64,000 nt of DNA from the NCBI GenBank assembly GCA_021613535.1, contig CP075492.1, forward strand, positions 14,643,205 through 14,707,204, written 5' to 3'. The position numbers and the translations under genes were made by a program. Under the pieces are notes generated by a model that was not told where the DNA came from, did not search any database, and saw nothing but the letters and a program-made list of their open reading frames with translations. Below, one piece after another: positions 3,659 to 64,000 of the stretch (the stretch's first letter is position 1; the number at the start of each line of letters is the position of its first letter). The stretch comes from Adineta vaga (taxonomy: Eukaryota > Animalia > Rotifera).

Positions 3659-5123
3659 ATTTCTTTTCATACAAAACAAAACAAAATGAACTGAAAATAA
3701 TTTACAAATTATGATTATCATCGTCTTCATCTGATTTACGAGTACAAATTTGTGATGTGACAACGAATAATAGATATGATATTTCATTATTATTTTGAGA
3801 ATATCAAATGTAAGAAGTTTTAAACTCTCTAATACTAAAGATTTCACTTGAGTAAAACGATGCATTGGTGCGACATGATAAATTGATCGATATCAATGAC
3901 TAATTCAACCCTTTTATATTCATAAAAAATCTTTTGTTCAATATTTGAGGGTACAATTGTCGGATATATTATATTGATAGCTAAATCACTAATATATCCA
4001 GTAGTAATTTGAAATGTAAAATTAAATTTTCGAATATTTGTTTTGAAAAGAACATCTTTTCATTGATTACCACATCACTTAAATCATTTTTACCATTCGC
4101 TTCGGTAGTTACATGTATTAATTCATTTAAATCATTCAGACATTGTTTGAACAGATTTCAACGATATAATCAGATCTATAAATCATCAACGATTAAATGA
4201 GTTAAGACGTCAGCTTGTTGATGAAATAATGAAAAAATATTCTTCTGTTATATGGAGTTGATACGGTATAGTTTTATCAGATAAGATCATTGAAATGATT
4301 GTTCAGATTTTTGAATGATCGGGATGAGTTCAATAGACAGAATCATATCAGTCGTAAAATAAGAAAGACGAAATAGAACGTACGGATCCAATGTAAATTT
4401 CTTTTTCTGTATAAAGGGATATTCCTCATTGAATATAAGCAATACATTTACATTATGTTCTCGTTTTCTGATATTTATTGTATTGATATATGCACATATT
4501 TTGTAACAAATTTTAAATTGCAAACATAAAATTTTTTTGTTTTTCTATCAGTTAGATCTCACTGAAAGCACATTTATTTCAATGTTGATATTATTAACTA
4601 TTTATAATTCATCGATTGACGTCACTGTTTATGTCATTTGCAAATCGTATTATGAAGAAAAAAACAAATATGACTCTTTCTTTAATGAAAATGACATCTT
4701 ACAATGACGTCGATCTCAAATTTATTTGAAATTCAGAGCAGAAAAATGGTTCTCAATTAAGTTTTTTCTATCATAATTTCCTTCTTTGTTGTAGTCGAGA
4801 ATTAGATTATCATCTTCATCGGAAAAATTGTCTTTCTACTTGAGAAGTATAACTAAATCAAGTTGACGTCAAATGCAGTTAGATGATGCGTTACAGAAAT
4901 ATCTCGAAGAAAATAATTTGTATAAGTAAGTCACTATCTCAATTTTCTTTCTTCAACGTTTCTACTTTCATTATTAAAAAAAAGACGCATAAACTGAAAA
5001 TGACAGATAAATATTTTATATACGATAAGCCATTATTTGTTCCTAAAAGATAAATATTACCTATGTTCTTTCTTATTCAGGATATAGTTGAAAGTATTCC
5101 ATCTTTTATTACTTATAGTTATC

Positions 5124-6152
5124 ATGTCGAGTTCAATCAATAGTTTTGTTACGAATCTAAACCTGATCTCGACTTGGATTAATCGCGTTTTTCCAGTTTT
5201 ACAAATTGTTTTTGGCACATGTGGAAATCTGTTCAACATTATCGTGTTTACTCGACCGACATTACGCGACAATCCGTGTTCAATGTACTTTTTAGCGGGC
5301 ACAATTAGTAACTTTATTGAAATTTATATGGAGATACTTTATCAATATCTTAAAAGTAATTGGAACTGGGATCCAACGAATACCAACACTATTTGGTGTA
5401 TAATACGTAACTGGTTGACATATCCTGCTTTATGTCTCGTACTATGGTTTATCGTTCTATCAAGCTTCGATCGATTTCTTATAAGTTCACATAATGTACG
5501 AATTCGTCGCATGAGTAATACATCAGCAGCTAAGAAAACAATCCTATTCACCATTTTATGTTTTTTCCTGATTTATGCACACATGCCATTTTTTTATAGA
5601 GCTATTAGACTCGGTACTTTGAACATTTGCACTGTTCAATCATCAGAATATATAATTTTTTCTAATATTTTATTTGTTATGGTTTTCTGCCTTTTACCGA
5701 TCCTATTTATGGTCATTTTTGGTACTTTAACATTTATCAACGTTCGTACAATACGCAATCGTATTAATCCACAATTCAACAACACAAGACAAGAACGTAT
5801 ACGAGCCAATGATCGTCAACTGACTAGAATGCTGCTATCACAAGTACTAATCACTACGCTACTGTCAGTTCCCTATTGTTGCATCAACATGTATAGCACA
5901 TTTGTGTTAACCTTGCTTAAAAAGCAACTTTCAACATCTGATCGAGCAATTTTCAGTCTGACATTTTATGTTACCCGAACACTTCATTTCACCAATCCTG
6001 TGATTGGATTTTACGTATATACTTTGAGCAGTTCAAAATTTAATGCTGAATTCAAACGATGCATTCGATATGGATTGAGAATCATTTTCACAACAACAGG
6101 TATCATAAAATATCTGCCACGAAGAAGGCAACAAGTACTACTCAATCTTTAA
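5124..6152 (+). CDS. Rhodopsin-like 7TM receptor (GPCR), single exon
   Basis: 7TM profile with FDRFL (DRY-like) after TM3 and NPVIGFYVY (NPxxY) in TM7, followed by a helix-8-like FNAEFKRC. The first ATG is at 5124; the track start at 5088 is TTG. An acceptor-like cag at 5078-5080 suggests a possible upstream exon or UTR intron. Confidence 0.7.
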   Translation: MSSSINSFVTNLNLISTWINRVFPVLQIVFGTCGNLFNIIVFTRPTLRDNPCSMYFLAGTISNFIEIYMEILYQYLKSNWNWDPTNTNTIWCIIRNWLTYPALCLVLWFIVLSSFDRFLISSHNVRIRRMSNTSAAKKTILFTILCFFLIYAHMPFFYRAIRLGTLNICTVQSSEYIIFSNILFVMVFCLLPILFMVIFGTLTFINVRTIRNRINPQFNNTRQERIRANDRQLTRMLLSQVLITTLLSVPYCCINMYSTFVLTLLKKQLSTSDRAIFSLTFYVTRTLHFTNPVIGFYVYTLSSSKFNAEFKRCIRYGLRIIFTTTGIIKYLPRRRQQVLLNL

Positions 6153-8379: not shown

Positions 8380-8779
8380 ACATTTGATATCTCTGTCATT
8401 ATTTTTTCGTACATGTTTATGAAATATAAAAAACAAATAACCATCATTTATTTTCTAATATTTTTATCACATTGAAACGTGAAGTTCTGCTTCATTAGTT
8501 AGAGGGAGAGAAAAGAAAATTAAAGAACACATGGGTGTACGGATGATATTTTCTTTCTAAACTCAATCGATATATATATATATATCAATGGATGAATGTA
8601 TCCTTTTTTTATTTAGACTGTAAAACATACATTTCATATTGAGAAACTTCAGAAGGTGAGTTGAAAATAGTGCAAAGAGTGTATTCGTCCATTGATCGAG
8701 TGGAAGTAAAAATATATCACTTTGATAATATTATAGAATAAACGTGATCATTGTGTCATAATCATAGTATTGACAAAAG

Positions 8780-10525
8780 ATGCCTTCATTAACAGAATCA
8801 GATAATTATTGGGAAACGGCAACAGATGATATTCGAGCGCAAATTATTACGACGTCAAATACAAACTCTAGACGAAATATATTTCAACGCATGATTGATT
8901 CATTTAAACGTGTACCTTCATCTAAAAATATTTCGATTCCAATGACGGAAACTGATAGAAGAGATGACCAAAACGATGAAGTCGAAAAAGGAGAAAGTGG
9001 TTTGCATCGAGCACTGAAAAATCGACATTTGCAGATGATTGCCATAGGCGGATCAATTGGTACTGGTCTTTTTGTTGGATCAGGTTTAGCACTAGCATCG
9101 AGCGGTCCTGGTGCACTTGTTCTTGATTTTGCCATCATTGGTTTTATGCTTTTCAATGTATGTATGGCATTGGGAGAGCTTAGTGTCGTTTTTCCTGTGT
9201 CTGGCTCATTTGCTGCTCATAGTACACGTTTTCTTGATCCTGCATGGGGATTTGCTATGGGATGGAATTATGCTCTCGGCTGGTTAATTATTATGCCTCT
9301 TGAATTAACAGCTGCTGGACTTGTAATTAACTATTGGACGACGTCGATAAATGTTGCAGTATGGATCACCATTTTTTTAATTGCACTTTTGATTATCAAT
9401 TTATTTGGTGTACGTGGATATGGCGAAATTGAATTCGTTATATCCCTCATTAAAGTAATTGCTGTCATTGGATTCATTATTCTCGGTATTATTCTAGTTT
9501 TCGGAGGTGGACCAAATCATGAATATTTAGGAGGGAAATATTGGCAGAATCCAGGTGCATTTGCCAATGGTTTCAAAGGTATATGTTCGACTTTTGTAGT
9601 GGCTGCTTTTGCTTTTGGAGGTACAGAACTAGTTGGCTTAGCTGCAGCCGAAACAGATAATCCTCGAAAGACTATTCCACGAGCCACAAAACAAGTCTTC
9701 TGGAGAATAATGATATTCTATATTGTATCATTAACACTTATCGGTTGTTTAGTACCTTATACATCTCGACGTCTTTTGAGTGGAACTTCGGCTTATGACG
9801 CGTCAGCATCACCTTTCGTTATTGCTATTGAAGATGCAGGCATCAAAGTTCTACCTTCGATATTCAATGCCATGATACTTTGTGCTGTACTTTCAGTTGG
9901 TAACTCGTCTGTTTATGGTGCATCTCGAACTTTATGTGCACTTGCTGAAAATGGTCAAGCACCAAACATATTCGCTTATATCGATCGTAAAGGTCGTCCA
10001 CTTTCTGCGGTCGCCTTATCGATGCTCTTGGGTTTCATAGCTTATATCAATTGTGCAGAAGTAGGTTCACAAGTATTTCATTGGTTACTAGCACTTGCTG
10101 GTTTGTCATCATTTTTTACTTGGAGTTCTATATGTGCATGTCATATCATGTTTCGAATAGCATGGAAAGCGCAAGGTCACACACTGGATGAACTGACGTT
10201 TGTAGCACCTTTTGGTATTTGGGGAAGCTGTATTGGTCTTTTGCTCAACATTCTATGTCTTATTGCTCAATTTTATCTAGCTATTTTTCCATTAGACTCT
10301 CCTCCAAGTGCAGAACGGTTTTTTCAAGCATATCTTGCTGCTCCCGTTATTCTTCTCTTATATGTAACATGGAAATTGTGGAAGAGATCACCATTTATGC
10401 GACCGAACACCATCGATCTGACTACTGGAAGACGTTTGCTCGACTCCCAACAGCTTATCGATGAAGAAAAAGCAGAACGTATGACTCGGCCTAGATGGAA
10501 AAGAATATATTACACACTATGCTAA
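8780..10525 (+). CDS. Amino acid permease, APC superfamily, yeast/bacterial AAP type, single exon
   Basis: 581 aa ORF with about 12 TM helices. The hallmark motif NRHLQMIAIGGSIGTGLFVGSG matches fungal Gap1-like and bacterial AroP/LysP permeases. ATG at 8780, TAA stop. Confidence 0.85.
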   Translation: MPSLTESDNYWETATDDIRAQIITTSNTNSRRNIFQRMIDSFKRVPSSKNISIPMTETDRRDDQNDEVEKGESGLHRALKNRHLQMIAIGGSIGTGLFVGSGLALASSGPGALVLDFAIIGFMLFNVCMALGELSVVFPVSGSFAAHSTRFLDPAWGFAMGWNYALGWLIIMPLELTAAGLVINYWTTSINVAVWITIFLIALLIINLFGVRGYGEIEFVISLIKVIAVIGFIILGIILVFGGGPNHEYLGGKYWQNPGAFANGFKGICSTFVVAAFAFGGTELVGLAAAETDNPRKTIPRATKQVFWRIMIFYIVSLTLIGCLVPYTSRRLLSGTSAYDASASPFVIAIEDAGIKVLPSIFNAMILCAVLSVGNSSVYGASRTLCALAENGQAPNIFAYIDRKGRPLSAVALSMLLGFIAYINCAEVGSQVFHWLLALAGLSSFFTWSSICACHIMFRIAWKAQGHTLDELTFVAPFGIWGSCIGLLLNILCLIAQFYLAIFPLDSPPSAERFFQAYLAAPVILLLYVTWKLWKRSPFMRPNTIDLTTGRRLLDSQQLIDEEKAERMTRPRWKRIYYTLC

Positions 10526-10959: not shown

Positions 10960-13329
10960 ATGGCTTTAGACAATATGGTAGACATTCGAGAGCAATGCAC
11001 TTTTCTTCTCAGTGCAACACGTAATTCTACTGTGAAGGAACAACTACCTTTATTTTTGGATAATGTGCTCAAATGTTTGAAAAAAATTCCTTCTATATGG
11101 GCAAAGCCCGATGTTATCGTCGAAATAACAAAGGCATTGTTAGCAGTTGATAGGGTACCATGGTTTCTACAACCTCAAGTGCTTCAACACCAGCTCTTCA
11201 TTATTCTACGTGATTACTTGGTAGAAGTTTTATTCGATGACAAACAAGCAGAAATGGTAACGAACTTATCCGCTCTATTCCACAAAATTTGTGAAAATGA
11301 TCCGATAAAAGATGAAATGATCAGCTTAATGTTGTACAAACCTCTTATTGACAAGATGAATGTTTTTATTACTGAATTTGATCAAAAACATGGTACAACG
11401 AAGCAAATTGAATGCATGTGTATTTTACTCCATATATTTAAACGTATCCAAATGATACATATCAATCTTTATCAACATCCACTTTTAGAAATTCTATTTC
11501 TCACCGTCTCTAAATTGATTAATTCAAAATTTTTGATCGCTCAACTTTTTAATACACGAAATCTTATGATGAATCTCGATCCAATACAAACATTTCTATT
11601 TGATACTTGTATCGAATTCATGTACTGGCAACCTTATGAAGAAAGTTTATTGCGAAGACAAAATTTAAAACAAATTTGTGAAACACATATTTCTACCATA
11701 GTACGAATGATGTCTTCATTATCCTTCTCAGAACCTGTTATTCGTATGGCTTCATTACTTAGTATTTATATTATGGTTCAAGAAAATGATAATGATGAAA
11801 AAATTCTTCATCAAGATTATTATGATCTTCTAAAGTACTGTGTAGCAATGCTTGACAATGGAAAGATTCACTCAAAAGAAAGACTTCTTTTGGAATGTAT
11901 TTGTCATCTTAGCAATCATCCTGATTTACTGATTTTATTAAAAGAAAATGAATCATTGAAAACTTTATTATTGACATTGAGTGAAGTAGATGATAGTGGT
12001 ATATCATTTAGTTCCTATCGTATTTTAGCATTAATTATGTGCGAAGATGATATTAAAACACTGAAGAATGCTAACAAAATTGTCGGAGTATTCTATCTCT
12101 ATTTGATTAGTATGTTGGATGATCCAGTTCAAAGAACAGCTTTTCTCAATCTTCTGTACAGTTTAAAAAGTAATTCATATGAATATAATCAGAATAGTAA
12201 ACAGATAATAATTGTATTCATTTCTAGGTTTAATACAACACGATCAAGTCAAAGTAGAAATCGTGCAGCAAGATATGATTTCTCCACTCATTCAATGTGT
12301 CACCGTCAAACAAAAGTTTCATTCGATTAAAATACAACAGTATGCTATCGAAATTCTAATAGCACTTTCATTCAACGATGATGCCATGCATATTCTTGAG
12401 CAAGATCACGATCTCATCGAATGTCTAACAACACTGAAGAGTTCCGACGAAGAATTAGTTCAACGAGCAGCAACTCATTTGATATGGCGATTCGAACAAA
12501 AACGTCGTGTTTCGCATCCCAAAGTATTTCAATCGATCTCAAAATCAAAATTTGATATTATGATTAGTTATTCACACAGTGATAAACAACTGTGTTTTCA
12601 AGTTTGTGATTTTCTTGAAAGAAGTGGCTTTCGTGTATGGCTTGATCGTGATCGAATGCATGGAGATGCAATTGTAGCCATGGCTGATGCAATTGAAAGT
12701 TCCGAATTTATCATTATTTGCATGTCAGAAACTTACAAATTAAGTCCTTATTGTCAAGCTGAGGCAAACTATGCATTTCAACGACAATGTAAACTAGTAC
12801 CACTTATTATGAAGTCAAAATATAAACCTGATGGTTGGCTAGGATTCATAACAAGTGGAAAGATTTATGTAGATTTTGCCAAACATGAATTCACTGTAGC
12901 TTGTTCAATGCTGACAAAAGAAATCGAAAGTAAACGTGAACTTACAACACATAGAGAAAAATCGCCCATCATCGTTCACGAATCAATAACAACTAGTACT
13001 TCTCCGATGAAAATCAATCAGCAACACATACGGATGTAAGTGCGGATATTGAGTACATCTATCTATTAATATGATTTAATTTAAGAGATTTGCCACATTC
13101 CGTTGACAAATGGTCTACTGATCACGTGCAGTCTTTCCTTATTAAGAACGAGTTGACTTCATTTTCGACCATATTGACTAATTTTAATGGTGATTTCTTG
13201 CATCAAACTTATTTAATGTGTGAAAAAAGTCGAGAATCAATGTTTCAAGCAATGCGACAAGAAGTTAGTGCAAATGGTAATTCATCGATCTTGACATTGG
13301 GTACTTACTACGCTTCCTTCAAGAATTAA
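10960..13329 (+). CDS. Armadillo-repeat / TIR / SAM domain protein (SARM-like, rearranged order), 3 exons
   Basis: Exons are join(10960..12169,12228..13035,13086..13329), with a GTAATT donor at 12170 and a GTAAGT donor at 13036; introns are 58 and 50 nt. The N-terminal roughly 500 aa is a helical ARM/HEAT-like repeat. A TIR domain (FDIMISYSHSD...RVWLDRDR...SPYCQAEANYAF, roughly 12551-12940) follows, then a C-terminal SAM domain (WSTDHVQSFLIKNELTSF...LGTYYASF) in the last exon. Confidence 0.75.
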
Positions 13330-14024
13330 AAAAATATATTCCAATCGACACGAAAAAATCTTCGAAACTTTAAAAATCAGTATTCTGAGGCATTATGTAT
13401 ATGTCGTTTTGCGCTTATGATCTCTTGAATAAATACATGCTCGAGGGTGGTTAAGAATAAAGATATCTCTGCTTTTCAGCCATCCACATTCACATCTACG
13501 AGATGCTTGTGTATGCCGCAAAAAATAGAATACGAAGCAAGTACATGAATGAACGAATATTTCTCATTCAGGGTTTCTTTTTTATCATTTCTTGTGTTGA
13601 TTTCTCGATGTCTTCTTATACTATATAACTATATCTTTCTCCTATCAAAGGATAACATAGTTCCATTTGGTAGCGTTGAACTAATCAGATATACAATTGG
13701 TACACTTCATTGTTTGTTCGTTACCATATTTTGTTTATTTTACCCTAAGTGGTATATTTCTTATTTATTTAAAAGATGAACGATATCATGAACTTTTATC
13801 TCGTATATTCTCATGTTTTGGACATTCAAATTCAGCAGTAGATGTTCTTGTATGTAATTCTACTTTTTTTTCGATTTTTCCCATGCCGTTAATTGACATG
13901 TGCAACATCGAAGTAACTAGCCTTTTAAGTTATCATTTTTTGATATAAAAATTAGATTTATTTATTTTGCAAGAACATTGTTATAAGAAAAGAAAAATTC
14001 TATTCATTCATTAATTATCTATCT

Positions 14025-20101: not shown

Positions 20102-21127
20102 ATGTCCACTATTAATATTCTTATCGATCAAATCAATGACGCAGCGTCAATATGTTTTCTCACAATATCTATTGTGAATTTTATCTTAGGTTCCATTGGA
20201 CTTCTCTTAAATATCTATGTTTTTTCTCGATCAATTCTTCGTCGTGAACCTTGTGCAATGTATTTTCTTTCATCGACAATTTACAATTTATTTGTTGTAT
20301 TTATTGTTATGCCTGTTCGTGTCCTTTCCAATGCATATAATATATCAGCATCCAATTATAATCTTGGTTTATGTAAATTTGAATACTTTATCTTCTATGC
20401 TACACGTGCCACATCAATTTGGTTAATTGTTTTAGCATGTCTTGATCGTTATTTACATAGTTCATCATATCCACATATTCGTCGATTGAGTTCAATGAAA
20501 ACGGTCAAATTATCAATTACAATTATTGGAATAATAGTGCCAATTTTATATAGTCATATGGTTATTTATTATGAAATATACTATGTATTAGATCCATATG
20601 GTAGTATAACACCTTCTTGTCGAAGTCAAAAAGGTCTTTATAGTACATTCTTTGGATTTTCACATATGGTTGTGTATTCACTTTGTCCATCATTTTTAAT
20701 GTTAGTTTTTGGCTGTTTAACATTGAGAAATATACGTCAACAACGTCGAATGACTCGACAATTAAATGAAAATATAAGAATTCGCCGAAGAGATACTCAA
20801 ATGTTACGAATGTTAACTGCTCAAGTAGTTGTAATTATTATTGCAACATTACCATTTTCAATTCATCAACTTTATATATCATTTACAAATACATTAGTTA
20901 AGAGTACACTTCGAATTGCTCAAGAAAATTTATCTGCACGAATTACTGGTATCATGACATATTTTGCACATTCAACTAGTTTCTATTTGTACACATTAAC
21001 TGGAACTATTTTTCGAAAAGAAGTTAGCAAGTTTATTCGAATCTGTTGGCAATCCAATGAAAATCGTATACATACAATTGACAATGAACGACAACAAGTA
21101 GATGTATTACAAAATAATAATGTGTAA
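20102..21127 (+). CDS. Rhodopsin-like 7TM receptor (GPCR), single exon
   Basis: 341 aa with a 7TM profile and a DRY-type motif, ACLDRYLHS, after TM3. ATG at 20102, TAA stop. Confidence 0.75.
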   Translation: MSTINILIDQINDAASICFLTISIVNFILGSIGLLLNIYVFSRSILRREPCAMYFLSSTIYNLFVVFIVMPVRVLSNAYNISASNYNLGLCKFEYFIFYATRATSIWLIVLACLDRYLHSSSYPHIRRLSSMKTVKLSITIIGIIVPILYSHMVIYYEIYYVLDPYGSITPSCRSQKGLYSTFFGFSHMVVYSLCPSFLMLVFGCLTLRNIRQQRRMTRQLNENIRIRRRDTQMLRMLTAQVVVIIIATLPFSIHQLYISFTNTLVKSTLRIAQENLSARITGIMTYFAHSTSFYLYTLTGTIFRKEVSKFIRICWQSNENRIHTIDNERQQVDVLQNNNV

Positions 21128-36388: not shown

Positions 36389-36826
36389 TGAACAATAGTA
36401 CAACTGGAAATCCTCGTACTTGAATGACGGCTAATAAGAATGAACTTTCTTCTTGTAGAACGCTTGATTGCAAAGCAGTTCACACGTAAGTTTCAATAGA
36501 ACATGAAACAAATCAAACAGTGCTGTGTGTATCTATTTAAATAAAGAGAGAATACATCTTTGAATATTTATCGAGTTCGTATACTTGTATTGATAAACAA
36601 CCTATTCATCACATTTTACCTGCATATTTGATTGACAGAATAAATCATATTCGTCGTTTTATGAATAGATATCAATTCATTATCACAATGAAGCTTTCTT
36701 TCTTTTTCTACATACGCCATCCAAACATTCTATCTACTGAAATAAGTATAAAGAGACGAAGCACTCAATAATTACCAAGATTAAAGAGTAAACGATTGCA
36801 TTTTCAAATTGTATATTGCAACAGAC

Positions 36827-37945
36827 ATGATGATTTCTTCGTTTCTTGTCGTCTTCTTCTTCTTATTGAATCAATGTAGTTCATATCCGCAATTTGCTTT
36901 AAAGTTACAACCCGATGCATTACATCCTTTTCAAGAACCAGGCCCATTTGATATTCGTGGTCCATGTCCAGGTTTAAATACAGCTGCCAATCATGGTTAT
37001 ATTAGTCGTAATGGTATCACAACATTTGCAGAATTAGTTCAAATGCAGCAAGAGTTATATAATGTTGGTCTTGATTTAGCTCTTCTTTTAGCTACTATTG
37101 GTGTTGCTCTCGATGGTGATATCATTACAGGTAAATTATCGATTGGAAAAGAATCAACAGCTGTTCCAGGACTTCTACGTACACCAGGTGGATTAAATGC
37201 ACATAATAAATTTGAAGGTGATACTTCATTGACACGAAATGATTATTACTTAGCTAATGGAGATAATTTCAAATTTAACGGAACTTTATACGGAATGATG
37301 TTTGCTGAAGCACAAAATAATGGTGGCTTATATAATTGGAAAACAATGGCTGACTATCGTTATAAACGTTATCAACAATCATTAGCAGAAAATGGACAGT
37401 TTCTTTTTCCTCCCCAAGCTATTTTACTTTATGGAGCTGCAACATTTCTTTATGAGTTATTTCCAAATGGAACAGATAAATTACCTACAGAAACGGTGAT
37501 TTCGTCTTTTTTTGGTGCAAAACAAACAGAAAATGGAAAATGGGAAGCAGTATCGGAAAAAATTCCTTCAAATTGGTATAGAAGAGAAACACCATTTACT
37601 TTAGTTGATATTGCTATTCAAGTATTAAAACTGTATTTAGAACATATAGCTTTATTTGGAGGTAATACTGGTCGACCGAATTCATTTATTCTTGATCCTT
37701 TCCAATTAACATTGGATAAACAAAATATTAATGGAATTTTGTGTCTTCTATATCAAACAGTTTTATCTGTTGTACCATCACAAGTAGAAACACTGATTAC
37801 TTCACCTGTAGCTATACTCAATTTTTTAATAGCAAAGTTAGATCCAATATTTGGTGTACAATTTGGATGTCCATCGACTAGTTTTGATCAAGCAGTACCT
37901 ACACCATTAGAAAATATTGTCAAAAAAACAATTCTTCGTCGTTAA
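36827..37945 (+). CDS. Heme-thiolate peroxidase / unspecific peroxygenase (chloroperoxidase-like, fungal type), secreted, single exon
   Basis: A signal peptide is followed by the diagnostic PCP motif, RGPCPGLNTAANHGYISRNG (Cys codon 36965-36967), with acidic residues downstream (EHD region). It is intronless, and the first ATG is at 36827. Confidence 0.85.
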   Translation: MMISSFLVVFFFLLNQCSSYPQFALKLQPDALHPFQEPGPFDIRGPCPGLNTAANHGYISRNGITTFAELVQMQQELYNVGLDLALLLATIGVALDGDIITGKLSIGKESTAVPGLLRTPGGLNAHNKFEGDTSLTRNDYYLANGDNFKFNGTLYGMMFAEAQNNGGLYNWKTMADYRYKRYQQSLAENGQFLFPPQAILLYGAATFLYELFPNGTDKLPTETVISSFFGAKQTENGKWEAVSEKIPSNWYRRETPFTLVDIAIQVLKLYLEHIALFGGNTGRPNSFILDPFQLTLDKQNINGILCLLYQTVLSVVPSQVETLITSPVAILNFLIAKLDPIFGVQFGCPSTSFDQAVPTPLENIVKKTILRR

Positions 37946-42225: not shown

Positions 42226-45200
42226 ATGGCTTTAGATACAGAACAAAATAAGAATTCAATCGCAGATTTGAATAGTACTACTAGCGAAAAAGAAATGACG
42301 ATGCTTGAGACTACGTATGTTTTACTTTCTTATAATTAATTTCACTTATAATTTGTACGACAAACTTTTCATAGAAATTTTGATGATAGATTAGGAACGA
42401 AATTCACCCTCGTAGCTATTTTAACATCCTGTGTATTCTGTGGCATTGCCATGTTTATTGGTATTCTCGTCATTTGTCTAACTACTTCCGAAAAACCAAG
42501 TAATTCATCTTTTTTTCAACTCCTTTTCTGGACATTTAGTAATAATATATTTACTTCTTTAGTACCAAAATGTACTTTAAATTTTGCTCCAACAATGACG
42601 AATCCAATTGAATACAATTATCGTCCACGATCTGTTGCCGTCGGTGATTTCAATCAGGATAATATATTGGATCTTGCTGTTGCTAATTCAGCTGTTGACA
42701 CTATTGTTATTTTCCTTCGACATGAAAATGGTAGTATAGAAAGTCCAATCACTGTTTCAGATGAATCTAATTCTATTCCATATATGCTCGCGGTTAATGA
42801 CTTGAATAACGACAATCGATTAGATATTGCAGTAGCAAACTATGGTACACATAGTATAGGTATTTTCTTCGGACTTGGAAACGGATCCTTTGAGAATTTT
42901 ACAATACTTTCTACGGGTACATCACGTCCTATTTCAATTCTTATAAATGATTTCAATAACGATACATTACTGGATATTGTTACTGTTAATTACGGTACCG
43001 ATAGTATAAACATCTATTTTGGGTACGGAAATGGTACCTTCTCATCACCTGTCACATACTGGCTAGGTTACGATTCTTTGCCATATGCAGTTGCAGCAGA
43101 AGATTTTAATAATGACACACAAATCGATTTAGTTATTGCTAATCATGGTACTAATAGTATCGTTATAATCTTTGGAGATATGAACGGCAATTTCATTAAA
43201 AGAACAACAATTTCTACAGGCTTGAATTCGCATCCCTATTCGATTGCAGTTAGCGATTTAGATAATAACAATTTGTTGGATATTGTCGTTGCTAATTATG
43301 GTACGAACAGTATAGGTATATTTCTTAACTATGGAAATGGATTCTTTTCAAAACAAAATACATATTCATTGGGTACTGCTTCACCATGTTGCATTAGTAT
43401 TGGTGATTTGAATAATGATCATCAAATGGATATTATTGTTACTAATCAAGGTGTTGATAATGTTGCTGTTTTTATTGGCTATGGTAATGGTACTTTTACA
43501 GATCCAAAAATGTATTCAACTGGTTCATTATCTACAATCTCACTTGCTACAGGTCATTTTAATAGTGATAATCGATTAGATATTGTAATCGTTAATAATG
43601 ATACGAATAGTATAAATATTCTATTTGGTTATTATGATGCGTTTCCAATTCAGCAGAAGTTTTCAGCGGGTCCTTCATCGTATTCAATAGATGTGGGTGA
43701 TTTTGATAACAACAATGAACTAGATTTTGTGACTAGTGATCAATTTGATGGAACGATACGCGTCTTCTTAGGACAAGGTGATGGTTCTTTTATACAGAAA
43801 ATCACTAAACTATTCAACTATTATCTGTTTTCTTTGTCTGTTGGTCATTTTAATAACGATGGAAGATTGGATATTGTCGTCACTGATTCTTTCGATAATC
43901 AAGTAACGATCCTTCTTGGACTTGGTGATGGATATTTTGAAGAGCCAAAGAAATATTCCGTTGGTAATGCTCCGTTCTTTCTAACTGTCAGTGATTTAAA
44001 TAAGGATACATATATGGATATAATTATCGCTAATGTGAATAGCAATGATATAACTGTACTTTACGGCTATGGCAATGGTTCTTTCAGAAATGACACCAGA
44101 TATAAAATGGGATCAGTACCGCAATCGGTAGTTGTTAATGATTTCAATAATGATACTCATCTAGATTTAGTCATTGTTAATGGTGGTAACGAAAGTGTGA
44201 GCATTCTACTTGGTTATAGCAACGGTACTTTTTCTGAAGAAACACGATACTCTGTTGGTTCTAATCCGTATAATGGAGCTGTTGGTGATTTTAACAATGA
44301 TAAACGACTAGATATTGTTGTTTGTAATGCAGGTAGTAACGATATAAGTATCTTACTTGGAAATGGTGATGGTTCTTTTCTGAAACAAATGAATTATGCA
44401 ACTGGTGATAGTCCTCGATCTTTAGCTATTGCTGATGTCAATAACGATGCTCGACAGGATATTATCGTTGTTAATACTGATGGTAATACAGTAGGTATTT
44501 ATCTTGGATATGGTAATGGTTCTTTTGAAAATCCCATGATCTACTTGCCTGGTTCTATGCCGCGATGTGTAGCTGTCGGCGATTTTAATTATGACGGTCG
44601 AATAGATATCGTAGTTGGTAATCTAAACGATAATCTAGTAACAGTATTATTTGGTTACGATCGTGGAGCTCTGGAAAACAGAGTAGCTTTCGCATCGGGT
44701 GAAGCTTCACGTTTACAATATGCTGCTGCGGGTTATTTCAATGATGATACATGGCTTGATCTTATTGTTGCTAATTATGGTACTAATGATATAGGTATTA
44801 TGTTCGGTCATGGAAATGGTACATTTGAACGTCAACTATTAATTCCAACAGGTTTAAACTCTGCTCCCAAATCAATCGCTATTCAAGATTTTAATAATGA
44901 CGGTCAACTAGATATTGCAGTAGCGAATTATGGTACTAATAATTTAGCTATGCTACTTGGTGATGGAAAAGGAATGTTTACAAATCAAGCAAATTATGAC
45001 AATAATATGAAGTATCCTCCAGCAACTATTATTGCTGCTGATTTCAACAATAATAAACGATCTGAAATTGTAGTCACATATGATAATACGGACAATATAG
45101 ATATATTTATTTCGTATGATACAGGAACTTTTATTTACGACAATTCTTATACAGTTGGTGTGCTTCCACAATATGCCGCTATTGGTGATTTTAATAATGA

Positions 45201-46758
45201 TATGCAACCCGATATTGTTGTTACTAATATGTGGGATGGTACGATCAGTATACTTCTCGGTTACAAAAACGGTACTTTTGCGAAACAAACTATATATTCA
45301 AGTGATTGGTATCCAATTTTTGTCGTTATAAATGATATCAATCAGGATACTATATTAGATATTATCGTTGTTAGTCGAGTTAAGGATACGGTAAATATTT
45401 TTCTCGGCAATGGAAACGGTACTTTTAGAAATCCAATTAAATATTCAACTGGTAGTGTACCATACTACATTGATGTTGGAGATTTCAATAACGATACATA
45501 TATAGACATTGTTACCAGCAATGCAAATAGTAATGATATGAGTATCTTATTAAATTATGGTAATGGTTCATTCAAAGATCAAATCAAATACACAACTGGT
45601 TCTCATCCTCAATCTATAATTGTCAGTGACATTAATAATGATCGACAACTCGATATCATTGTTGTCAATGAATTTGATAATGATCTCAGCATTTTTCTCG
45701 GTCATGGTAATGGATCTTTTCGAGAACAAATTCGATATTCAACTGGTACTAATCCAGTCTCACTTGTTATTGGTGATGTAAATAATGATACAAAATTAGA
45801 TATTGTTGTTTCTAATAGTGTTACTCATGATATAAGTGTTCTTATTGGATATGGTAATGGATCTTTTCAAAATCAAACAAGATATTCAACTGGTTCTCGT
45901 CCAGGATCATTAAGTATTGGTGATTTCAATAATGATACATTCCTCGATATTATCGTCACTCATTCAATTGCTAATAGTATAAGTGTTTTTATCGGATATG
46001 GTAATGGCATTTTTGCATATCGAATTACATATTCAACGAATGCAGGTCCGAATTCTGTTGTTTTTGCAGATTTTAATAACGATCATCGAATAGATATTGC
46101 TATTGTTTGTAGTGGTTCATCTAAAATTGACGTACTCTTTGGAGATATCAGTCAGTCATTTGTAAAAAAGACAACATTGATTAATGATAATGGATCTCGA
46201 CCGAGATCACTAGTTGCAGGTGATTTTAATCATGACAATCAACTAGATATTGCAGTTGCAAATTCAGGTACTAATAATGTGGGTATCTTTTGGGGTCATG
46301 GAGATATTTCATTTACAAATCAATATATCATTTCAAGTAATTATTCTCCATGGTCTATAACTGTTGGTCATTTGAATAATGACACTCTATTAGATCTTGT
46401 CGTTGCCAATTATCATAACGATAGTATTGGTATATTTTTTGCATCTACAAATAACTCCTTTTCTACACAATACATATTTATAACGGGTTCGAAATCGAAA
46501 CCATATGCAACTGTTGTTGCGGATTTTAATAATGATAATAGACAAGACATTATTGTCGCCAATTATGGCAGTAATGATGTAGGTATTTTTCTTGGTGATG
46601 GTAGTGGTTCATTTGCAAGTATAATGATTATTCCCGTTGGTTACGGAACTCTTCCGTTTTCTATCATCGTTGGTTATTTTGATAATGATCCTAAATTGGA
46701 TTTTGCTGTTATCAATGAAGGCACTGATAATCTAAGAATTTTCTTACAAACATGTTAG
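42226..46758 (+). CDS. Giant FG-GAP/VCBS-repeat beta-propeller protein, predicted type II membrane protein (~1.46k aa), 2 exons
   Basis: Exons are join(42226..42314,42375..46758), with a GTATGT donor and a 60 nt intron. It has a short N-terminal cytoplasmic segment, a TM (FTLVAILTSCVFCGIAMFIGILVI), and about 28-29 tandem repeats of roughly 48 aa (DFNNDxxLDIVVANYGTNSIGILLGYGNGTF...Y..G..P), consistent with four 7-bladed propellers. Confidence 0.75.
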
Positions 46759-48432: not shown

Positions 48433-50003
48433 TTAGTGATGTAAAAGAATACTAATGCTATTCGAATAGAAATTTGCAACAATAATGTCTAGTTTATTGT
48501 CATTATTCACATCAGTTAATGTTATTGCAACAGGACCATTACCAACTGAGTAAATATATTGAGAAGAAAAACTGCCATTGCCAAGATTGAAAAGTACACC
48601 AACATTATTTGAACCATAGTTTGCAACAACAATGTCCAGTGTATAATCGTCATTCAGATCAGCTAACGCTACTGCGATTGGACCACTACTAACCGAATAG
48701 GTTCTTGAGTATTGAAATGAACCGCTGCCTATGTTCAATAATATTCCAATAGTATTCGAACCATAGTTTGCAACAATAATATCAGATTTATTATCACCAT
48801 CTACATCAGTTACTATAACTGCTCGTGGATTGTTTCCAACTGAATACATAGTCGAAGGATAAAATGTACCGTTGCCTTTGTTAAGAAGAATACCGATATT
48901 GTTTGAATAATAATTTGCAACAATAATATCGGGTTTATTATCATTATTAACGTCGCTTGTTGTGATTGAGATTGGATTGAGAAAAACTGGATATGAAGTT
49001 TCAGTAGAAAATGTCGCATTACCCATGTTCAGAAGAACGCAAACTGTGTTCGAATTGTAATTTGCTACAATGATATCGAGTTTGTTGTCACCATTCACAT
49101 CAGTTACTGTAACTGATCTTGGATAGGATACAATTGTATAAATGATCTGAGAAGAAAACGTGCCATTACCGGTGTTAAGAAGAATACAAATATTGTTTGG
49201 AACTGGACTTGCGATGACAATATCGACTTTATCATCACCGTTCATGTCGCCTACGACAGCTGTCATTGGATTAGTACTAGTTAAGTAGGTAATTTGATTC
49301 CGAAACGAACCATCACCTAAATTAGTAAGAACACCAATGTTATTGGAACCGTAATTAGCGACAATAATATCGGATTTGTTATGATTGTTTAAATCGATTA
49401 CTGCGACTGAATACGGTTCATAACCAACTTGATAAGACACTTGAGGGAGAAACATATCACTATTGTTATACACTAAAGAAATATCAGGAAAAACAAGTAA
49501 TATTCTTCTGTATTTCGAAACTTGTTGGTATGAACATAACGTGCAAGACTTACCAGTTGCTATCGTCGTTGCTATTGATGTTGACGAAGTTGACATGAAT
49601 TGATCTGTATTAGAGAAGTAATAGTAACAATAAACAACGTCGCTCGACACAAACAAGAGAGAAATAGATAGCTAATCGTTGCGATTATTTTCAGTAAAAA
49701 CTTACTTGATACTATTGATATTGATGATTGATTACTAAAGATATATGTGGCGTCGACATGAAATTCGATGACAATTGAATGATTCTTCAAAGAAAACAAT
49801 TGACATGTTTTATTCATTGAAAAATAATTTAATGCAAATATGAATTTATTTGATGCTCTAGCCATTTGACATATACATTCCTCTTTTGTTAGATTAACAA
49901 ATGACATATTTATATAATCGACCATTATATTATTCTCTATTTTACCGATAGATATCGATTGACTAGCAGAAAATAACGATAGAAGTAATAATATCCAAAA
50001 CAT
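48433..50003 (-). CDS. Secreted single-propeller FG-GAP/VCBS-repeat protein with N-terminal Cys-containing domain, 3 exons
   Basis: Exons are complement(join(48433..49472,49554..49604,49706..50003)), with GTAAGT donors and introns of 81 and 101 nt. It has the signal peptide MFWILLLLSLFSASQS, a roughly 80 aa domain with 4 Cys, a S/T linker, and 7 FG-GAP-like blades (DxNxDxKxDIIVANYGSNxIGIL). Confidence 0.7.
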
Positions 50004-51724: not shown

Positions 51725-52888
51725 ATGATGCAAACAGAGAATGTGTTTATTATTGCTGGAGCAGGCATTGGAGGTTTAGCAACTGCTTTAGCATTGCAAC
51801 AGAATGGATTTTCGTATGAAATTTATGAACGTGACATAGATTTTAATTCTCGTCGACAAGGTTATAGTTTAACTATTCAAAAGAATGGATTTGCAGCATT
51901 GAAAGAACTTGGTTTAGGTGATTGTGTACGAGAGATGGGTGCAGATTCTGTAATCGCAGGAACAGCTACATACAACAATTTGGGTGAAGTGATCTTTTCT
52001 AAATCTAAACGAAATAGGGATCGATATAATTTCAATAATTTTGCAGTACCACGACAATCTCTTCGTACATGTCTAATGAATGAATTAAAACCAAATGTTA
52101 TTCATTGGAATAAAGAAATTATTCGATATGAATCGTTACAAAATAATTCTCATCAAATTCGAGTTATCTTCTCGGATAATACATCCGTTGTTGGTCGTGC
52201 ATTGATTGGCTGCGATGGAGTTCGTAGTACAATTCGTAAACAAATGTTAGGTGATGATTTGAATTATCTTGGTGTATGGGCGATTAATGGTATTTCATCT
52301 CATCAACAGAATCCACTTCTTGTCAATAAAACTGTTCAGATGCTTGATGGAAAATCTCGTTTATTTATTAAACCATATTCTCTTCATAAATCTATGTGGC
52401 AATTGACTTTTCAAGTTTCGAAAGATGATCAAACTTACAATCAAAATGATTTAGAAGATTTATTAAATAAAGCAAGACATACTACGAAAGATTGGTATGA
52501 ATCAATTACAAAATTAATTCATGACACGTCAGTTTCAGATATTCGTGCTGGTCCAGTTTTTGATCGAGATCCATTGGAAATTATTCGCAAAGACGTCGAA
52601 TGTGTGACAATGTTAGGTGATGCTGTACATCCTATGAGTCCTTTTAAAGGACAAGGAGCGAATCAGGCATTGACGGATGCAGTTAATTTAGTAAAATTTA
52701 TAATGAAATATCAAGAAGAGAATGATGGCGTCGAAAAAGCTTTTCATGATTTTGAAAATGAAATGCTCATACGTTCAAAACGTTCTGTTTTACAATCAAG
52801 ATCAGCGGTAAAATTTCTTCATACTAACAATGCTCTTCTAAACACAAATATGTCTCAATTTATCAGTGGTAAACTTGTATTCGAATAA
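51725..52888 (+). CDS. FAD-dependent aromatic-ring monooxygenase (salicylate hydroxylase-like), single exon
   Basis: It has an N-terminal GxGxxG FAD fold (FIIAGAGIGGLATALAL) and the C-terminal FAD motif GDAVHPMSPFKGQGANQALTDAVNL. ATG at 51725, TAA stop. Confidence 0.85.
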   Translation: MMQTENVFIIAGAGIGGLATALALQQNGFSYEIYERDIDFNSRRQGYSLTIQKNGFAALKELGLGDCVREMGADSVIAGTATYNNLGEVIFSKSKRNRDRYNFNNFAVPRQSLRTCLMNELKPNVIHWNKEIIRYESLQNNSHQIRVIFSDNTSVVGRALIGCDGVRSTIRKQMLGDDLNYLGVWAINGISSHQQNPLLVNKTVQMLDGKSRLFIKPYSLHKSMWQLTFQVSKDDQTYNQNDLEDLLNKARHTTKDWYESITKLIHDTSVSDIRAGPVFDRDPLEIIRKDVECVTMLGDAVHPMSPFKGQGANQALTDAVNLVKFIMKYQEENDGVEKAFHDFENEMLIRSKRSVLQSRSAVKFLHTNNALLNTNMSQFISGKLVFE

Positions 52889-60822: not shown

Positions 60823-63800
60823 CTAAATATAACTAAAGCAATGATTTCTCCTACAGCTTTGTCGCCATTTTTTCATTGACTTGACAAATTTTTCTTTGTA
60901 CAGTGTTGATGGCAGAACGTACATGATAAAAATCAAAGTCGTAGGAATAAATGCCGTAAAATAACTCGAAACATATAACCAGGAGCTTTGAGATGCTTTT
61001 ACACATCGAAACAATGATGAAATAATAATAAATGGCAATGTGAAGATGACCAATAGCAGAGGACCAATAAGTAACGGTTTGTGTTGATAAACTTGCTCTC
61101 TAAGATGCTGACGGCGACCTTTATATTTTCGAGCTGCTGCTTTTCGACGAACAATTGTATAAATAATGAATAGAGATGAGAAAATATTGATAAAAAATGG
61201 TCCAAGCACATGAAGAAATGAAATTGCTGTTGTATAGATATATAAATTTGATGAATAAAGAGTAACACACCAGACACGATCTTCTTCAGTATCATCAAAT
61301 AAATCACGAGAAAAGCATTCATAAATATTTGAACCGATAAGTAATAATACTAAAACAATCACAATACATCGAGCAGCTTTGATACTATGTGTTTTATTGA
61401 AAGATATTCCTTTCGAAGTATTTATGGCACGTTCAATTGATACACAAGCATTCAACCAATTATTCATCCATGAACAAAATTTCAGTAAAGGTTCAATCGA
61501 CAAACATCCAAAACGAAGAACAGCACGATTTGTTTCTAAATTCATTTGAGAAAGTAAAACAAACCAAAATTTCATCATCAACACGGTAATAGTAATCAGT
61601 GAAGTGATTGACAACATTAAAAGATAAATGCCACATCCAACTACACGCGTATCTCGCCGAGAAAATGTAATTAATGAAAGAATACTATTGACTAAGCCAA
61701 TAACAAATAATATCATGGTAAAAAACATACTTAACTTAACCATTTCAGATTGATTACTTAGACGAATATTTGATCGAATTTCATATCGAAAGAGATCATC
61801 AAGTGTTAATCCTATTCCTTTCGCATAAAATTGACATTGATTACCAAAGAAACAATCAATACAATTACATATAGTTGTAAGTGGACATATTGGATGATCT
61901 TGTAAACATTGTCCATCATTGAGACAATGAACATTTTCTTTGCATTGAAAATCATGTTGATGATCAAATGCAAAACAATTAGCATGATGTTCTGTTGTAC
62001 ATAAACACATATACGATTCATCAAAGAAACATTTTAAATGAGGATTGTTTTGACATAAAGTATGATAATATTTAATTCGTTGAATTCTGAGTAATTTGAT
62101 TTGTTTAGAATCGAGAAGTTCATTAACAGACGGACATCGTCGAGTGGAATCGATTGTTGTTGAGATGTTAGATGTTTCCGATTGTTGAAGCACAGTCAAA
62201 TAATAGTTATTATTCGTTAGAATAAACACCATTTGAAATACTTGTTGGAGATAAAATGTCACATTTCTCTGCAGTGTAGTTATTTTTCTTAGTATTGTTT
62301 CGTGTGCTATTGGTGGCTCCCAGGGAATGTTTGAATAGATAAACGCTATCAGATATGATGATATTTTTCTATCATTGAGAGTGATATGTAACCGTGACGT
62401 TGGAGATTCACATCTTTCTCCTCGAAATTCTTCGGGACATAAACATTCATAACTAGTATCAACCATTCGTTCATCAGTAACAACGCACACACCATTATTT
62501 TCACAATAATTTATTGGACATGAATGTTTGAGCAAACAACGATTACCGAACTTTTCAAGAGGACAAATACAGATTGATCGATTATGTGCACGGTCAATAC
62601 AAATTGAATCAGATGAACAATCATCGCAATCAATTGAAATATGACACTGAGCACCAGTCCAACCTTTCTGACATTGACAAAAGAACTTTTCTTCATTTAT
62701 ATACTTCACACAGATACCATGTTGACATTGAAGAGAACACAAACCAGAATAAGCAATATGATTCGATCCCAAAGTTAATAGAACAGCAAGTCGGTTCACT
62801 GGCAGAAAATTGAAAGGAACTTTGAAATACCAACTAGCAAGATATTCCACTGAAACCTTATCATAAACATCAATGTGAATACTGTAGTTTTTTGAAAGAT
62901 GTTTTGGTCTTGTTGAATACGGAAGATATTTATCGAATGGTTGACCACATGTTATTTTAGCAATATAGATGATTTGTTCATACGATTGTATTTGTTGTTG
63001 ATCATTATCATCATCAATTAGTTTAATGAAAATAGCAAAAGTATGATATCGAATGATAGCTGATAATATTAATGTAAGACTCACTCGTTGATTCTGATAT
63101 TGACATTGATTTCCATAATAATTTGGTGGACATAGACAAATTGTAGTGTCATTTTCATTTCCTAACCAAAGACGCATGGGTGAACCACGTGTGCATTGCC
63201 ATGATGGAGTATAAACGTGTGAAAATTTTTGTGGTGCATCATCAGCAGAAGTGATGATATTATTTTCGACTAATGGACAGGTTTCAGATGATTCTAATGT
63301 GAATGGAACACGAGACATGGTACCAAAACGACAAAGAATATCTTGAACTTCAGTGAGATTATAATCAGTCCATTCTTCACATACGTCTGTATAATATATT
63401 TCATTATGTAAATCACATAGTATAAAAGGTTCGATACATCTTGCGTCATTCAAACAACGAAAACTATATGAAATTCCACTAAAGAAATCTGCTACTCGAC
63501 ATAATTGTGGTTCATCTATTCCGCCAAGACAATCAACAATGCCATTTCTCACTTCATGTGCTGGTATACATATCATTGTATAATTATAGGGTGACGTACA
63601 TTCAAGAAAACGATGAGAACAGTTCGATGGTCGACACTTTTCTTCATCTTTACCATTTTCACAATCCCAAAATCCATCACATCTTGTATAAATATTATTG
63701 CAAGGCCAATATTCACAATCACTTTCATCTGTATAATTTTGTCCATTGATTATTTCAGGTGAAGTATCAATCGTTTTATCACATATTTGATTGAAAACGG

Positions 63801-64000
63801 TATTATCGATAGTTTTCACCTCACTTTCTTCAAATTCACAACCATGTAGTTGAAGTATTGACGATCGACATCGACTTTCATTTGGACATGTAAAACGATT
63901 AGGCTCATTAAGTGAACAACTTAATTTAAAATCTTCTTCATCATCATGCAAGTAACAATCAATGATGTTGTCAGCAATTCGACGTGTTGAAATATATTTG
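60823..64000 (-). CDS. 7TM receptor with large EGF-like/LDL-receptor class A ectodomain; 5'-partial (continues beyond window)
   Basis: The ORF is open to the window edge at 64000. It has an LDLa module (CEYWPCNNIYTRCDGFWDCENGKDEEKC) and multiple EGF-like Cys patterns (CLCPPNYYGNQCQ, CQCQKGWTGAQCH, CLCPEEFRGERCE, CNCIDCFFGNQCQ). The C-terminus has 7 TM helices with SIERAI (DRY-like) after TM3. No introns were detected. Confidence 0.75.
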   Translation of the reverse strand, partial: KYISTRRIADNIIDCYLHDDEEDFKLSCSLNEPNRFTCPNESRCRSSILQLHGCEFEESEVKTIDNTVFNQICDKTIDTSPEIINGQNYTDESDCEYWPCNNIYTRCDGFWDCENGKDEEKCRPSNCSHRFLECTSPYNYTMICIPAHEVRNGIVDCLGGIDEPQLCRVADFFSGISYSFRCLNDARCIEPFILCDLHNEIYYTDVCEEWTDYNLTEVQDILCRFGTMSRVPFTLESSETCPLVENNIITSADDAPQKFSHVYTPSWQCTRGSPMRLWLGNENDTTICLCPPNYYGNQCQYQNQRVSLTLILSAIIRYHTFAIFIKLIDDDNDQQQIQSYEQIIYIAKITCGQPFDKYLPYSTRPKHLSKNYSIHIDVYDKVSVEYLASWYFKVPFNFLPVNRLAVLLTLGSNHIAYSGLCSLQCQHGICVKYINEEKFFCQCQKGWTGAQCHISIDCDDCSSDSICIDRAHNRSICICPLEKFGNRCLLKHSCPINYCENNGVCVVTDERMVDTSYECLCPEEFRGERCESPTSRLHITLNDRKISSYLIAFIYSNIPWEPPIAHETILRKITTLQRNVTFYLQQVFQMVFILTNNNYYLTVLQQSETSNISTTIDSTRRCPSVNELLDSKQIKLLRIQRIKYYHTLCQNNPHLKCFFDESYMCLCTTEHHANCFAFDHQHDFQCKENVHCLNDGQCLQDHPICPLTTICNCIDCFFGNQCQFYAKGIGLTLDDLFRYEIRSNIRLSNQSEMVKLSMFFTMILFVIGLVNSILSLITFSRRDTRVVGCGIYLLMLSITSLITITVLMMKFWFVLLSQMNLETNRAVLRFGCLSIEPLLKFCSWMNNWLNACVSIERAINTSKGISFNKTHSIKAARCIVIVLVLLLIGSNIYECFSRDLFDDTEEDRVWCVTLYSSNLYIYTTAISFLHVLGPFFINIFSSLFIIYTIVRRKAAARKYKGRRQHLREQVYQHKPLLIGPLLLVIFTLPFIIISSLFRCVKASQSSWLYVSSYFTAFIPTTLIFIMYVLPSTLYKEKFVKSMKKWRQSCRRNHCFSYI

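Follow-up and report, generated by a model that had tools for sequence, protein, structure and literature searches.

Is the gene I4U23_015579 of the bdelloid rotifer Adineta vaga a rearranged copy of SARM1, or does it belong to a different protein family, and is its product still complete? The gene occupies positions 10960-13329 of the 64,000-nucleotide stretch of DNA that we analyzed (the window; contig CP075492.1 of assembly GCA_021613535.1, positions 14,643,205 to 14,707,204), and a first-pass annotation had described its product as a SARM1-like protein with a permuted order of armadillo (ARM), TIR and SAM domains. We find that it belongs to a known, catalogued family, the invertebrate ARM-TIR proteins, in which it is an ordinary member that had already been annotated. 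Taking all the parts of our account together, we think it probable that the family layout is a solenoid, a TIR domain with a catalytic-position glutamate, a linker, a divergent SAM domain and a CaaX box, that the family works by cleaving NAD+ (nicotinamide adenine dinucleotide), and that the A. vaga gene is a truncated copy. The novelty lies only in the tail of this subfamily, whose SAM fold and CaaX box are under-annotated, and in the decay of that tail in the A. vaga copy.

Structure of the gene

I4U23_015579 is a genuine three-exon gene. Its parts within the window, which is AT-rich (31.5% GC), are as follows:

10960..12169, + strand: exon 1, from the ATG to the first base of codon 404, containing most of the helical armadillo-like region (from translation and the annotated protein)
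12170..12227, + strand: intron 1, 58 nt, GT-AG, phase 1, with donor GTAATT at 12170
12228..13035, + strand: exon 2, in which the armadillo-like repeats end (near residue 497, nt 12508) and are followed by the TIR domain and a linker of low complexity
13036..13085, + strand: intron 2, 50 nt, GT-AG, phase 2
13086..13329, + strand: exon 3, containing helices 1-4 and the start of helix 5 of a divergent SAM/Pointed-type domain, and ending at a premature TAA (13327-13329)

Joined in frame, the three exons encode a product of 753 amino acids that is identical over its full length (100%) to UJR11399.1, 'hypothetical protein I4U23_015579 [Adineta vaga]', whose gene sits on a chromosome-scale contig of 20 Mb. 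When we compared this structure with the orthologous loci of two Rotaria species, R. socialis (L001) and R. sordida (L003), we found that each contains two introns and no more, which interrupt the same codons as in A. vaga with the same phases: codon 404 (phase 1) and the codon that precedes the conserved D-L-P (phase 2). Therefore the last exon is part of the same gene in all three species. The 753-codon reading frame is open and conserved, with 60% identity to Rotaria, invariant TIR motifs and intact splice sites. The three exons of the first-pass annotation are thus the same as those of the public annotation, and the motifs that it listed (DIMISYSHSD, RVWLDRDRMHGD and SPYCQAEANYAF) are all found in the product, whose length is 753 residues rather than the roughly 760 it had given.

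The TIR domain and its glutamate

The TIR domain and its glutamate are located as follows:

12557..12886, + strand: TIR domain core, residues 514-623 (Pfam TIR_2; hhalign to the human SARM1 TIR)
12761..12763, + strand: GAG codon of Glu582, the putative catalytic glutamate, in the motif SPYCQAE (alignments to SARM1, Cat1 and animal TIRs)

The TIR domain proposed from the sequence is borne out by Pfam. TIR_2 (PF13676) matches residues 514-623 with 78.2 bits, well above its cut-off of 28 (E = 9.8e-22), and the TIR model PF01582 is barely above its cut-off (21.8 versus 21.3). We compared a 100-sequence alignment of family TIRs to the TIR of human SARM1 by hhalign, having checked the SARM1 sequence against PDB entries, and obtained a match with 90.6% probability (E = 1.3e-6, 23% identity) in which Glu582 lies opposite E642 of SARM1. 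A glutamate in the position used by SARM1-type NADases had been suspected before, and it is kept in 98 of the 100 family TIRs. Glu582 also lies opposite the glutamate of Cat1, at a site where the non-enzymatic protein MyD88 has glutamine.

Among solved structures, the best sequence relatives of the TIR domain are those of the CRISPR-associated protein Cat1, the Toll-like receptors (TLRs) TLR2/15, MyD88, and the plant proteins RPV1 and RUN1. The Cat1 TIR is the best match of all (E = 6.5e-6 in the profile search), and there are weak PADLOC matches to ThsB and SAVED-TIR, so the likeness extends to bacterial and archaeal TIR defence enzymes, with which the family shares a WC/YCxxE catalytic motif. 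Unlike those enzymes, the A. vaga gene is eukaryotic and multi-exon, has armadillo and SAM partner domains, and lacks an operon context.

Experimental data come from a 2026 preprint (bioRxiv 10.64898/2026.04.20.719644) in which 154 eukaryotic TIRs with such a glutamate were assayed. According to its authors, several animal TIRs, including rotifer ones, produced cyclic ADP-ribose (cADPR) in a glutamate-dependent manner, and a coelacanth TIR depleted NAD+. With the coelacanth TIR the A. vaga domain shares 32% identity, and with a TIR from Adineta steineri 35%; the glutamate is aligned in both cases, and the A. steineri domain carries positive marks in Table S4 of the preprint that we interpret as cADPR production. 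By analogy, the A. vaga TIR probably cleaves NAD+.

A TIR domain can also act without catalysis, and the protein could be an adaptor or scaffold that works through TIR-TIR and SAM-SAM contacts in Toll-like or other signalling. This view has precedents–in Aplysia, ARM-TIR proteins have been classed as putative adaptors in signalling (PMC9334734), and an adaptor role has also been hypothesised for the ecTIR-DC families (PMC6321704)–and our profile search also matches the TIRs of MyD88 and TLRs. We nevertheless consider it unlikely, given that a near-universal glutamate stands where the adaptor MyD88 has glutamine, and that related animal TIRs with this glutamate are reported in the preprint to make cADPR or deplete NAD+.

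The armadillo-like region and the SAM-type domain

In the predicted structure, residues 1-497 are all-helical, with about 29 helices. Pfam ELMO_ARM scores 25.5-26.1 bits on the A. vaga protein, slightly below its cut-off of 27, and less divergent relatives exceed the Pfam Arm cut-off of 20.6 (27.4 and 22.6 bits). Our full-length AlphaFold model was built from a five-sequence alignment (pLDDT, the predicted local confidence, of 63.9), and we used it for secondary structure and coarse fold matches alone; its Foldseek matches, with E-values of 1e-6 to 1e-4 for a low-confidence model, are designed armadillo proteins, beta-catenin, importin-alpha and TIR-1/SARM1. The earlier description of an armadillo/HEAT-like helical region is thus reasonable, with 'armadillo-like' as a label for residues 1-497 that covers no specific kinship to the SARM1 ARM domain.

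The C-terminal domain is harder to recognize. A Pfam scan of the full A. vaga protein gave no SAM match at E <= 10, and when the C-terminus was scanned alone SAM_PNT reached 12.4 bits against a cut-off of 24. We gathered the domain from 56 relatives by exhaustive HMMER search. Scanned individually, these relatives gave weak matches below threshold (12 of the 56 to SAM_PNT, 4 to SAM_3, 3 to SAM_2 and 3 to SAM_1). The profile of all 56 matches SAM/Pointed structures almost exclusively: the TEL-SAM of ETV6, liprin-beta, the SAM of SMS1 (E = 0.003), the PNT domains of FLI1/ERG, neurabin, Shank, the SAM of SARM1, and polyhomeotic. A model of the C-terminus of an ortholog has a five-helix fold with a root-mean-square deviation of 2.1-2.5 Å over 63-64 residues from SAM/Pointed structures. 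With the SAM/Pointed domains of ETV6 (TEL-SAM), polyhomeotic/Scm/Sfmbt and SMS1 the family domain appears to share this five-helix fold and an N-terminal signature, W-x-x-x-V-x-x-F-L ... G-x-x-L; it differs from them in being very divergent and, in the A. vaga copy, in lacking most of helix 5. Judging from the family profile and the modelled ortholog fold, the C-terminal domain of the family is best described as a divergent SAM fold. Of the SAM domain that the first-pass annotation had placed on its own 244-nt exon, the SAM-type fold is probable from the relatives, the expected Pfam SAM_1 and SAM_2 matches stay below threshold, and the domain is cut short in this copy. The order it gave, ARM then TIR then a single SAM, is confirmed.

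Two relatives depart from this pattern. P0038 has tandem SAM-like domains after its TIR (residues 409-510 and 507-597), recalling the tandem SAMs of SARM1, but these may reflect a merged gene model. In P0037 (residues ~560-826 and the C-terminal 100 residues), the SAM-like domain is followed by a second copy of the linker and of the first part of the TIR (KYDIMISYSHNDKELCYRIQEQLLKDNFRV), which suggests that tandemly duplicated family members have been run together in one gene model.

The CaaX tail and its decay in A. vaga

The orthologs in Rotaria extend about 30 residues further than the A. vaga protein. Their additional sequence, ...LTLGTYLQFLEELKKYIPIN...SSVCCIM, completes SAM helix 5 and adds a short linker and then a CaaX box, and their tails end in CCIM or CNIM (positions 8385-8488 of the R. 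socialis locus); the counterpart of this intact tail in P0191 is LRFLDELKKYIPIDTKNSSKQLTSMICNVM. Of 58 relatives with the domain, 22, among them P0002-P0005, P0036, P0041, P0043 and P0045, have a CaaX-type end (CCIM, CNIM, CNLM, CSVM, CVLI, CDII and others), and intact CaaX boxes occur in the A. vaga paralogs I4U23_009507 and I4U23_004340. Such an end predicts prenylation and membrane anchoring of these relatives. The product of I4U23_015579 ends in ...YYASFKN, without a cysteine at position -4, and so has no CaaX box.

To see what happened to the tail we aligned it with three related bdelloid loci, L005 (75% nucleotide identity), L004 and L001, all of which are intact. The alignment shows a frameshift followed by a relic (asterisks are stop codons):

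13307..13308, + strand: 1-nt deletion (TAT to TA-), a frameshift inside SAM helix 5 (DNA alignment, three-frame translation)
13308..13397, + strand: out-of-frame relic of the ancestral C-terminus, LRFLQELKKYIPIDTKKSSKL*KSVF*GIM, corresponding to the former remainder of helix 5, linker and CaaX box

Within the relic, an ancestral leucine codon has become TAA (13371-13373), the codon for the CaaX cysteine has become TGA (13386-13388), and the old stop codon has become TAT. The copy has lost about two thirds of SAM helix 5, including a phenylalanine that is nearly invariant in the family, as well as the CaaX box. Alternative splicing does not restore the frame: no intron bridges the 1-nt shift, and the upstream part of exon 3 is already in the annotated frame. 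We take the presence of several independent lesions as an argument for genuine decay of the tail, and the two nonsense changes downstream of the deletion as an argument that the loss of the CaaX box, at the least, is genuine. Neither the broken frame of exon 3 nor the CaaX box of the family was mentioned in the first-pass annotation.

These lesions raise the question of whether the whole gene is decaying or already non-functional, at the start of pseudogenisation in a large family with fast turnover. In favor of this, the last 30 ancestral codons carry a frameshift and two nonsense changes and have lost their terminal stop, whereas the three related loci are intact; the helix-5 phenylalanine is also gone, and there is no second A. 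vaga protein in the 90% cluster of the product. Set against this are the 753 upstream codons, which are open, as similar to Rotaria as stated above and invariant in their TIR motifs, and the intact splice sites. We judge loss of function to be improbable, to about the same degree as the adaptor role, and it is compatible with the ancestral function that we propose for the family.

The deletion itself could be an assembly or polishing error, in which case the real protein would have a complete SAM domain ending in ...KKSSKL, still without a CaaX box. Single-base indels are the commonest error in long-read assemblies, and restoring one base gives a perfect match to helix 5 of the relatives. The deletion site is not a homopolymer run, however, and the two independent nonsense substitutions downstream of it show relaxed constraint on the tail, so we rate an error as somewhat less likely again than either of the preceding alternatives.

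Members of the family and their shared layout

The family became visible because we used an exhaustive HMMER profile search, after word-indexed protein searches had given few matches: six with the full protein (all of them bdelloid), six with a five-sequence alignment and 10 with an alignment of the C-terminus, with no new taxa. The HMMER search matched 9719 proteins at E <= 1e-3, of which 562 remain at E <= 1e-30, and in many cases the match runs through all three parts of the protein (armadillo region, TIR and C-terminal domain). The members named in our results come from Rotaria, Adineta, Didymodactylos and the starfish Acanthaster planci. The A. planci protein contains, in order, Arm (above threshold), TIR_2, and SAM_2 (below threshold). 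The order ARM-TIR-SAM, being common to many bdelloid paralogs and this starfish protein, is old and widespread and is not a private permutation of SARM1.

The link to the catalogued family is provided by P0041 (A0A814MW18), which matches our query family profile over positions 9-778 with an E-value of 6.9e-133. In Table S2 of the preprint, as available to us, this protein is listed as a TPR-clan plus TIR protein (Glu598) in cluster A0A0B7AZE4_1, together with dozens of rotifer and sea-urchin proteins and with coral, mollusc and some algal members; SAM after TIR is annotated in two members of the cluster (bioRxiv 10.64898/2026.04.20.719644). The UniProt accessions of six orthologs are absent from the supplementary tables of the preprint, as far as those tables were available. 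On the strength of full-length homology to P0041, we place the A. vaga protein in the invertebrate ARM-TIR family, of the A0A0B7AZE4_1 type.

ARM-TIR is a recognised class in surveys of Aplysia immune genes (PMC9334734). Like other invertebrate ARM-TIR proteins, ours begins with an armadillo-type solenoid, after which comes a TIR of the TIR_2 type that has a glutamate in the catalytic position, and the group to which it belongs has undergone strong expansion in bdelloid rotifers and in sea urchins. Proteins of this kind probably fall within the ecTIR-DC families (Gerdol et al. 2017). The differences are in the tail: the published tables, in the part at hand, have SAM after TIR in two cluster members and no CaaX annotation, and in the A. 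vaga copy the SAM domain is cut short and there is no CaaX box. The papers on the family that we consulted, in the portions available, do not mention the CaaX tail of ARM-TIR-SAM proteins.

Comparison with SARM1

SARM1 and its C. elegans counterpart TIR-1 are NAD+ hydrolases with the order ARM-SAM-SAM-TIR. They share with the A. vaga protein the three domain types, a TIR_2-type TIR and the glutamate equivalent to E642, and a similar logic (an autoinhibitory ARM, an oligomerising SAM and a catalytic TIR) is plausible. They differ in order and in having two tandem SAMs where the A. vaga protein has one, placed after the TIR, and the latter has no detectable specific sequence affinity to SARM1: in the profile search of solved structures SARM1 is absent at E <= 1, while Cat1, TLRs, MyD88 and plant TIRs are present. 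To our knowledge, SARM1 has no C-terminal prenylation box, unlike the ARM-TIR-SAM relatives.

The first-pass proposal of a domain-permuted SARM1 ortholog is thus very improbable, in view of this missing match, the low identity of the two TIRs in the hhalign comparison, the single SAM after the TIR, a family of thousands of members across phyla with this order in both bdelloids and a starfish, and the assignment of human SARM1 to another cluster (T1J6E6_2) than that of A0A814MW18 in the accessible part of the preprint (bioRxiv 10.64898/2026.04.20.719644).

Genomic neighborhood

By tblastn with 182 family proteins, we found no second TIR gene or tandem array in the window. The neighboring genes, which include a sulfotransferase and a TPR protein, are unrelated to the TIR gene; other open reading frames (ORFs) and genes are:

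5088-6152, + strand: rhodopsin-family seven-transmembrane receptor ORF (Pfam 7tm_1)
8780-10525, + strand: amino-acid permease, single-exon
20102-21127, + strand: rhodopsin-family seven-transmembrane receptor ORF (Pfam 7tm_1)
36809-37945, + strand: Peroxidase_2 protein, fungal-type
42451-46758, + strand: FG-GAP_3 protein, 1435 amino acids, 23 repeats
48433-49656, - strand: second FG-GAP_3 protein
51725-52888, + strand: FAD_binding_3 monooxygenase
60823-63951, - strand: EGF-like protein

The two receptor ORFs lie 15 kb apart, on either side of the TIR gene. The long, intron-poor ORFs with fungal- or bacterial-type domains (Peroxidase_2, the two FG-GAP_3 proteins, the FAD monooxygenase and the permease) look like the horizontally acquired genes that are typical of bdelloid genomes. 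Some gene models of Rotaria magnacalcarata (P0011, P0014 and P0018) fuse the ortholog of the TIR gene to an EGF-like protein, and a homolog of that EGF-like part is located 49 kb downstream of the TIR gene in the window (62071-62808 by tblastn), which points to loose synteny and to gene models that have been merged in Rotaria.

Discussion

If the family functions as its domains suggest, the armadillo region would hold the TIR in check, or would sense a ligand or partner, and the SAM domain would promote self-association. The assembled TIRs would then form a composite NAD+ site at which Glu582 would cleave NAD+ to ADP-ribose or cADPR, and in most family members a prenylated tail would place the protein on a membrane. 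Since the CaaX box and some two thirds of helix 5 are missing from the A. vaga copy, we would expect a soluble protein whose SAM domain is weakened or does not function, and this copy may represent early gene decay in a birth-and-death family.

Several observations weigh against this account of the gene. One TIR tested in the preprint, from R. socialis and belonging to another cluster, has the glutamate but no activity marks in the available Table S4 (bioRxiv 10.64898/2026.04.20.719644), and therefore the glutamate alone is no guarantee of catalysis. SAM_1, SAM_2, SAM_PNT and SAM_3 are all below the Pfam gathering threshold on the A. vaga protein, and the Foldseek search with the C-terminal model is not significant (best E-value 0.95). 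The full-length model is poor, as its pLDDT and shallow alignment indicate, and the frameshift taken alone might be an assembly error.

By itself the gene adds little, being one annotated but uncharacterised copy of a family catalogued as ARM/TPR plus TIR with a catalytic glutamate. The tail is of wider interest: standard annotation with hidden Markov models misses a divergent SAM-fold domain and a CaaX box in many bdelloid ARM-TIR proteins, and these elements predict oligomerisation and membrane targeting. We tentatively suggest, as a possibility rather than an expectation, that the ARM-TIR-SAM-CaaX subfamily consists of membrane-tethered, SAM-oligomerised enzymes that cleave NAD+ or produce cADPR, that it originated independently of SARM1, and that, massively expanded in bdelloids, it forms a repertoire for innate immunity or cell suicide in which some copies, the present one included, are losing their anchoring and oligomerisation modules. 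With the three modules of SARM1 reordered in an independent lineage, the family offers a natural test of whether the position of the SAM domain matters for TIR activation.
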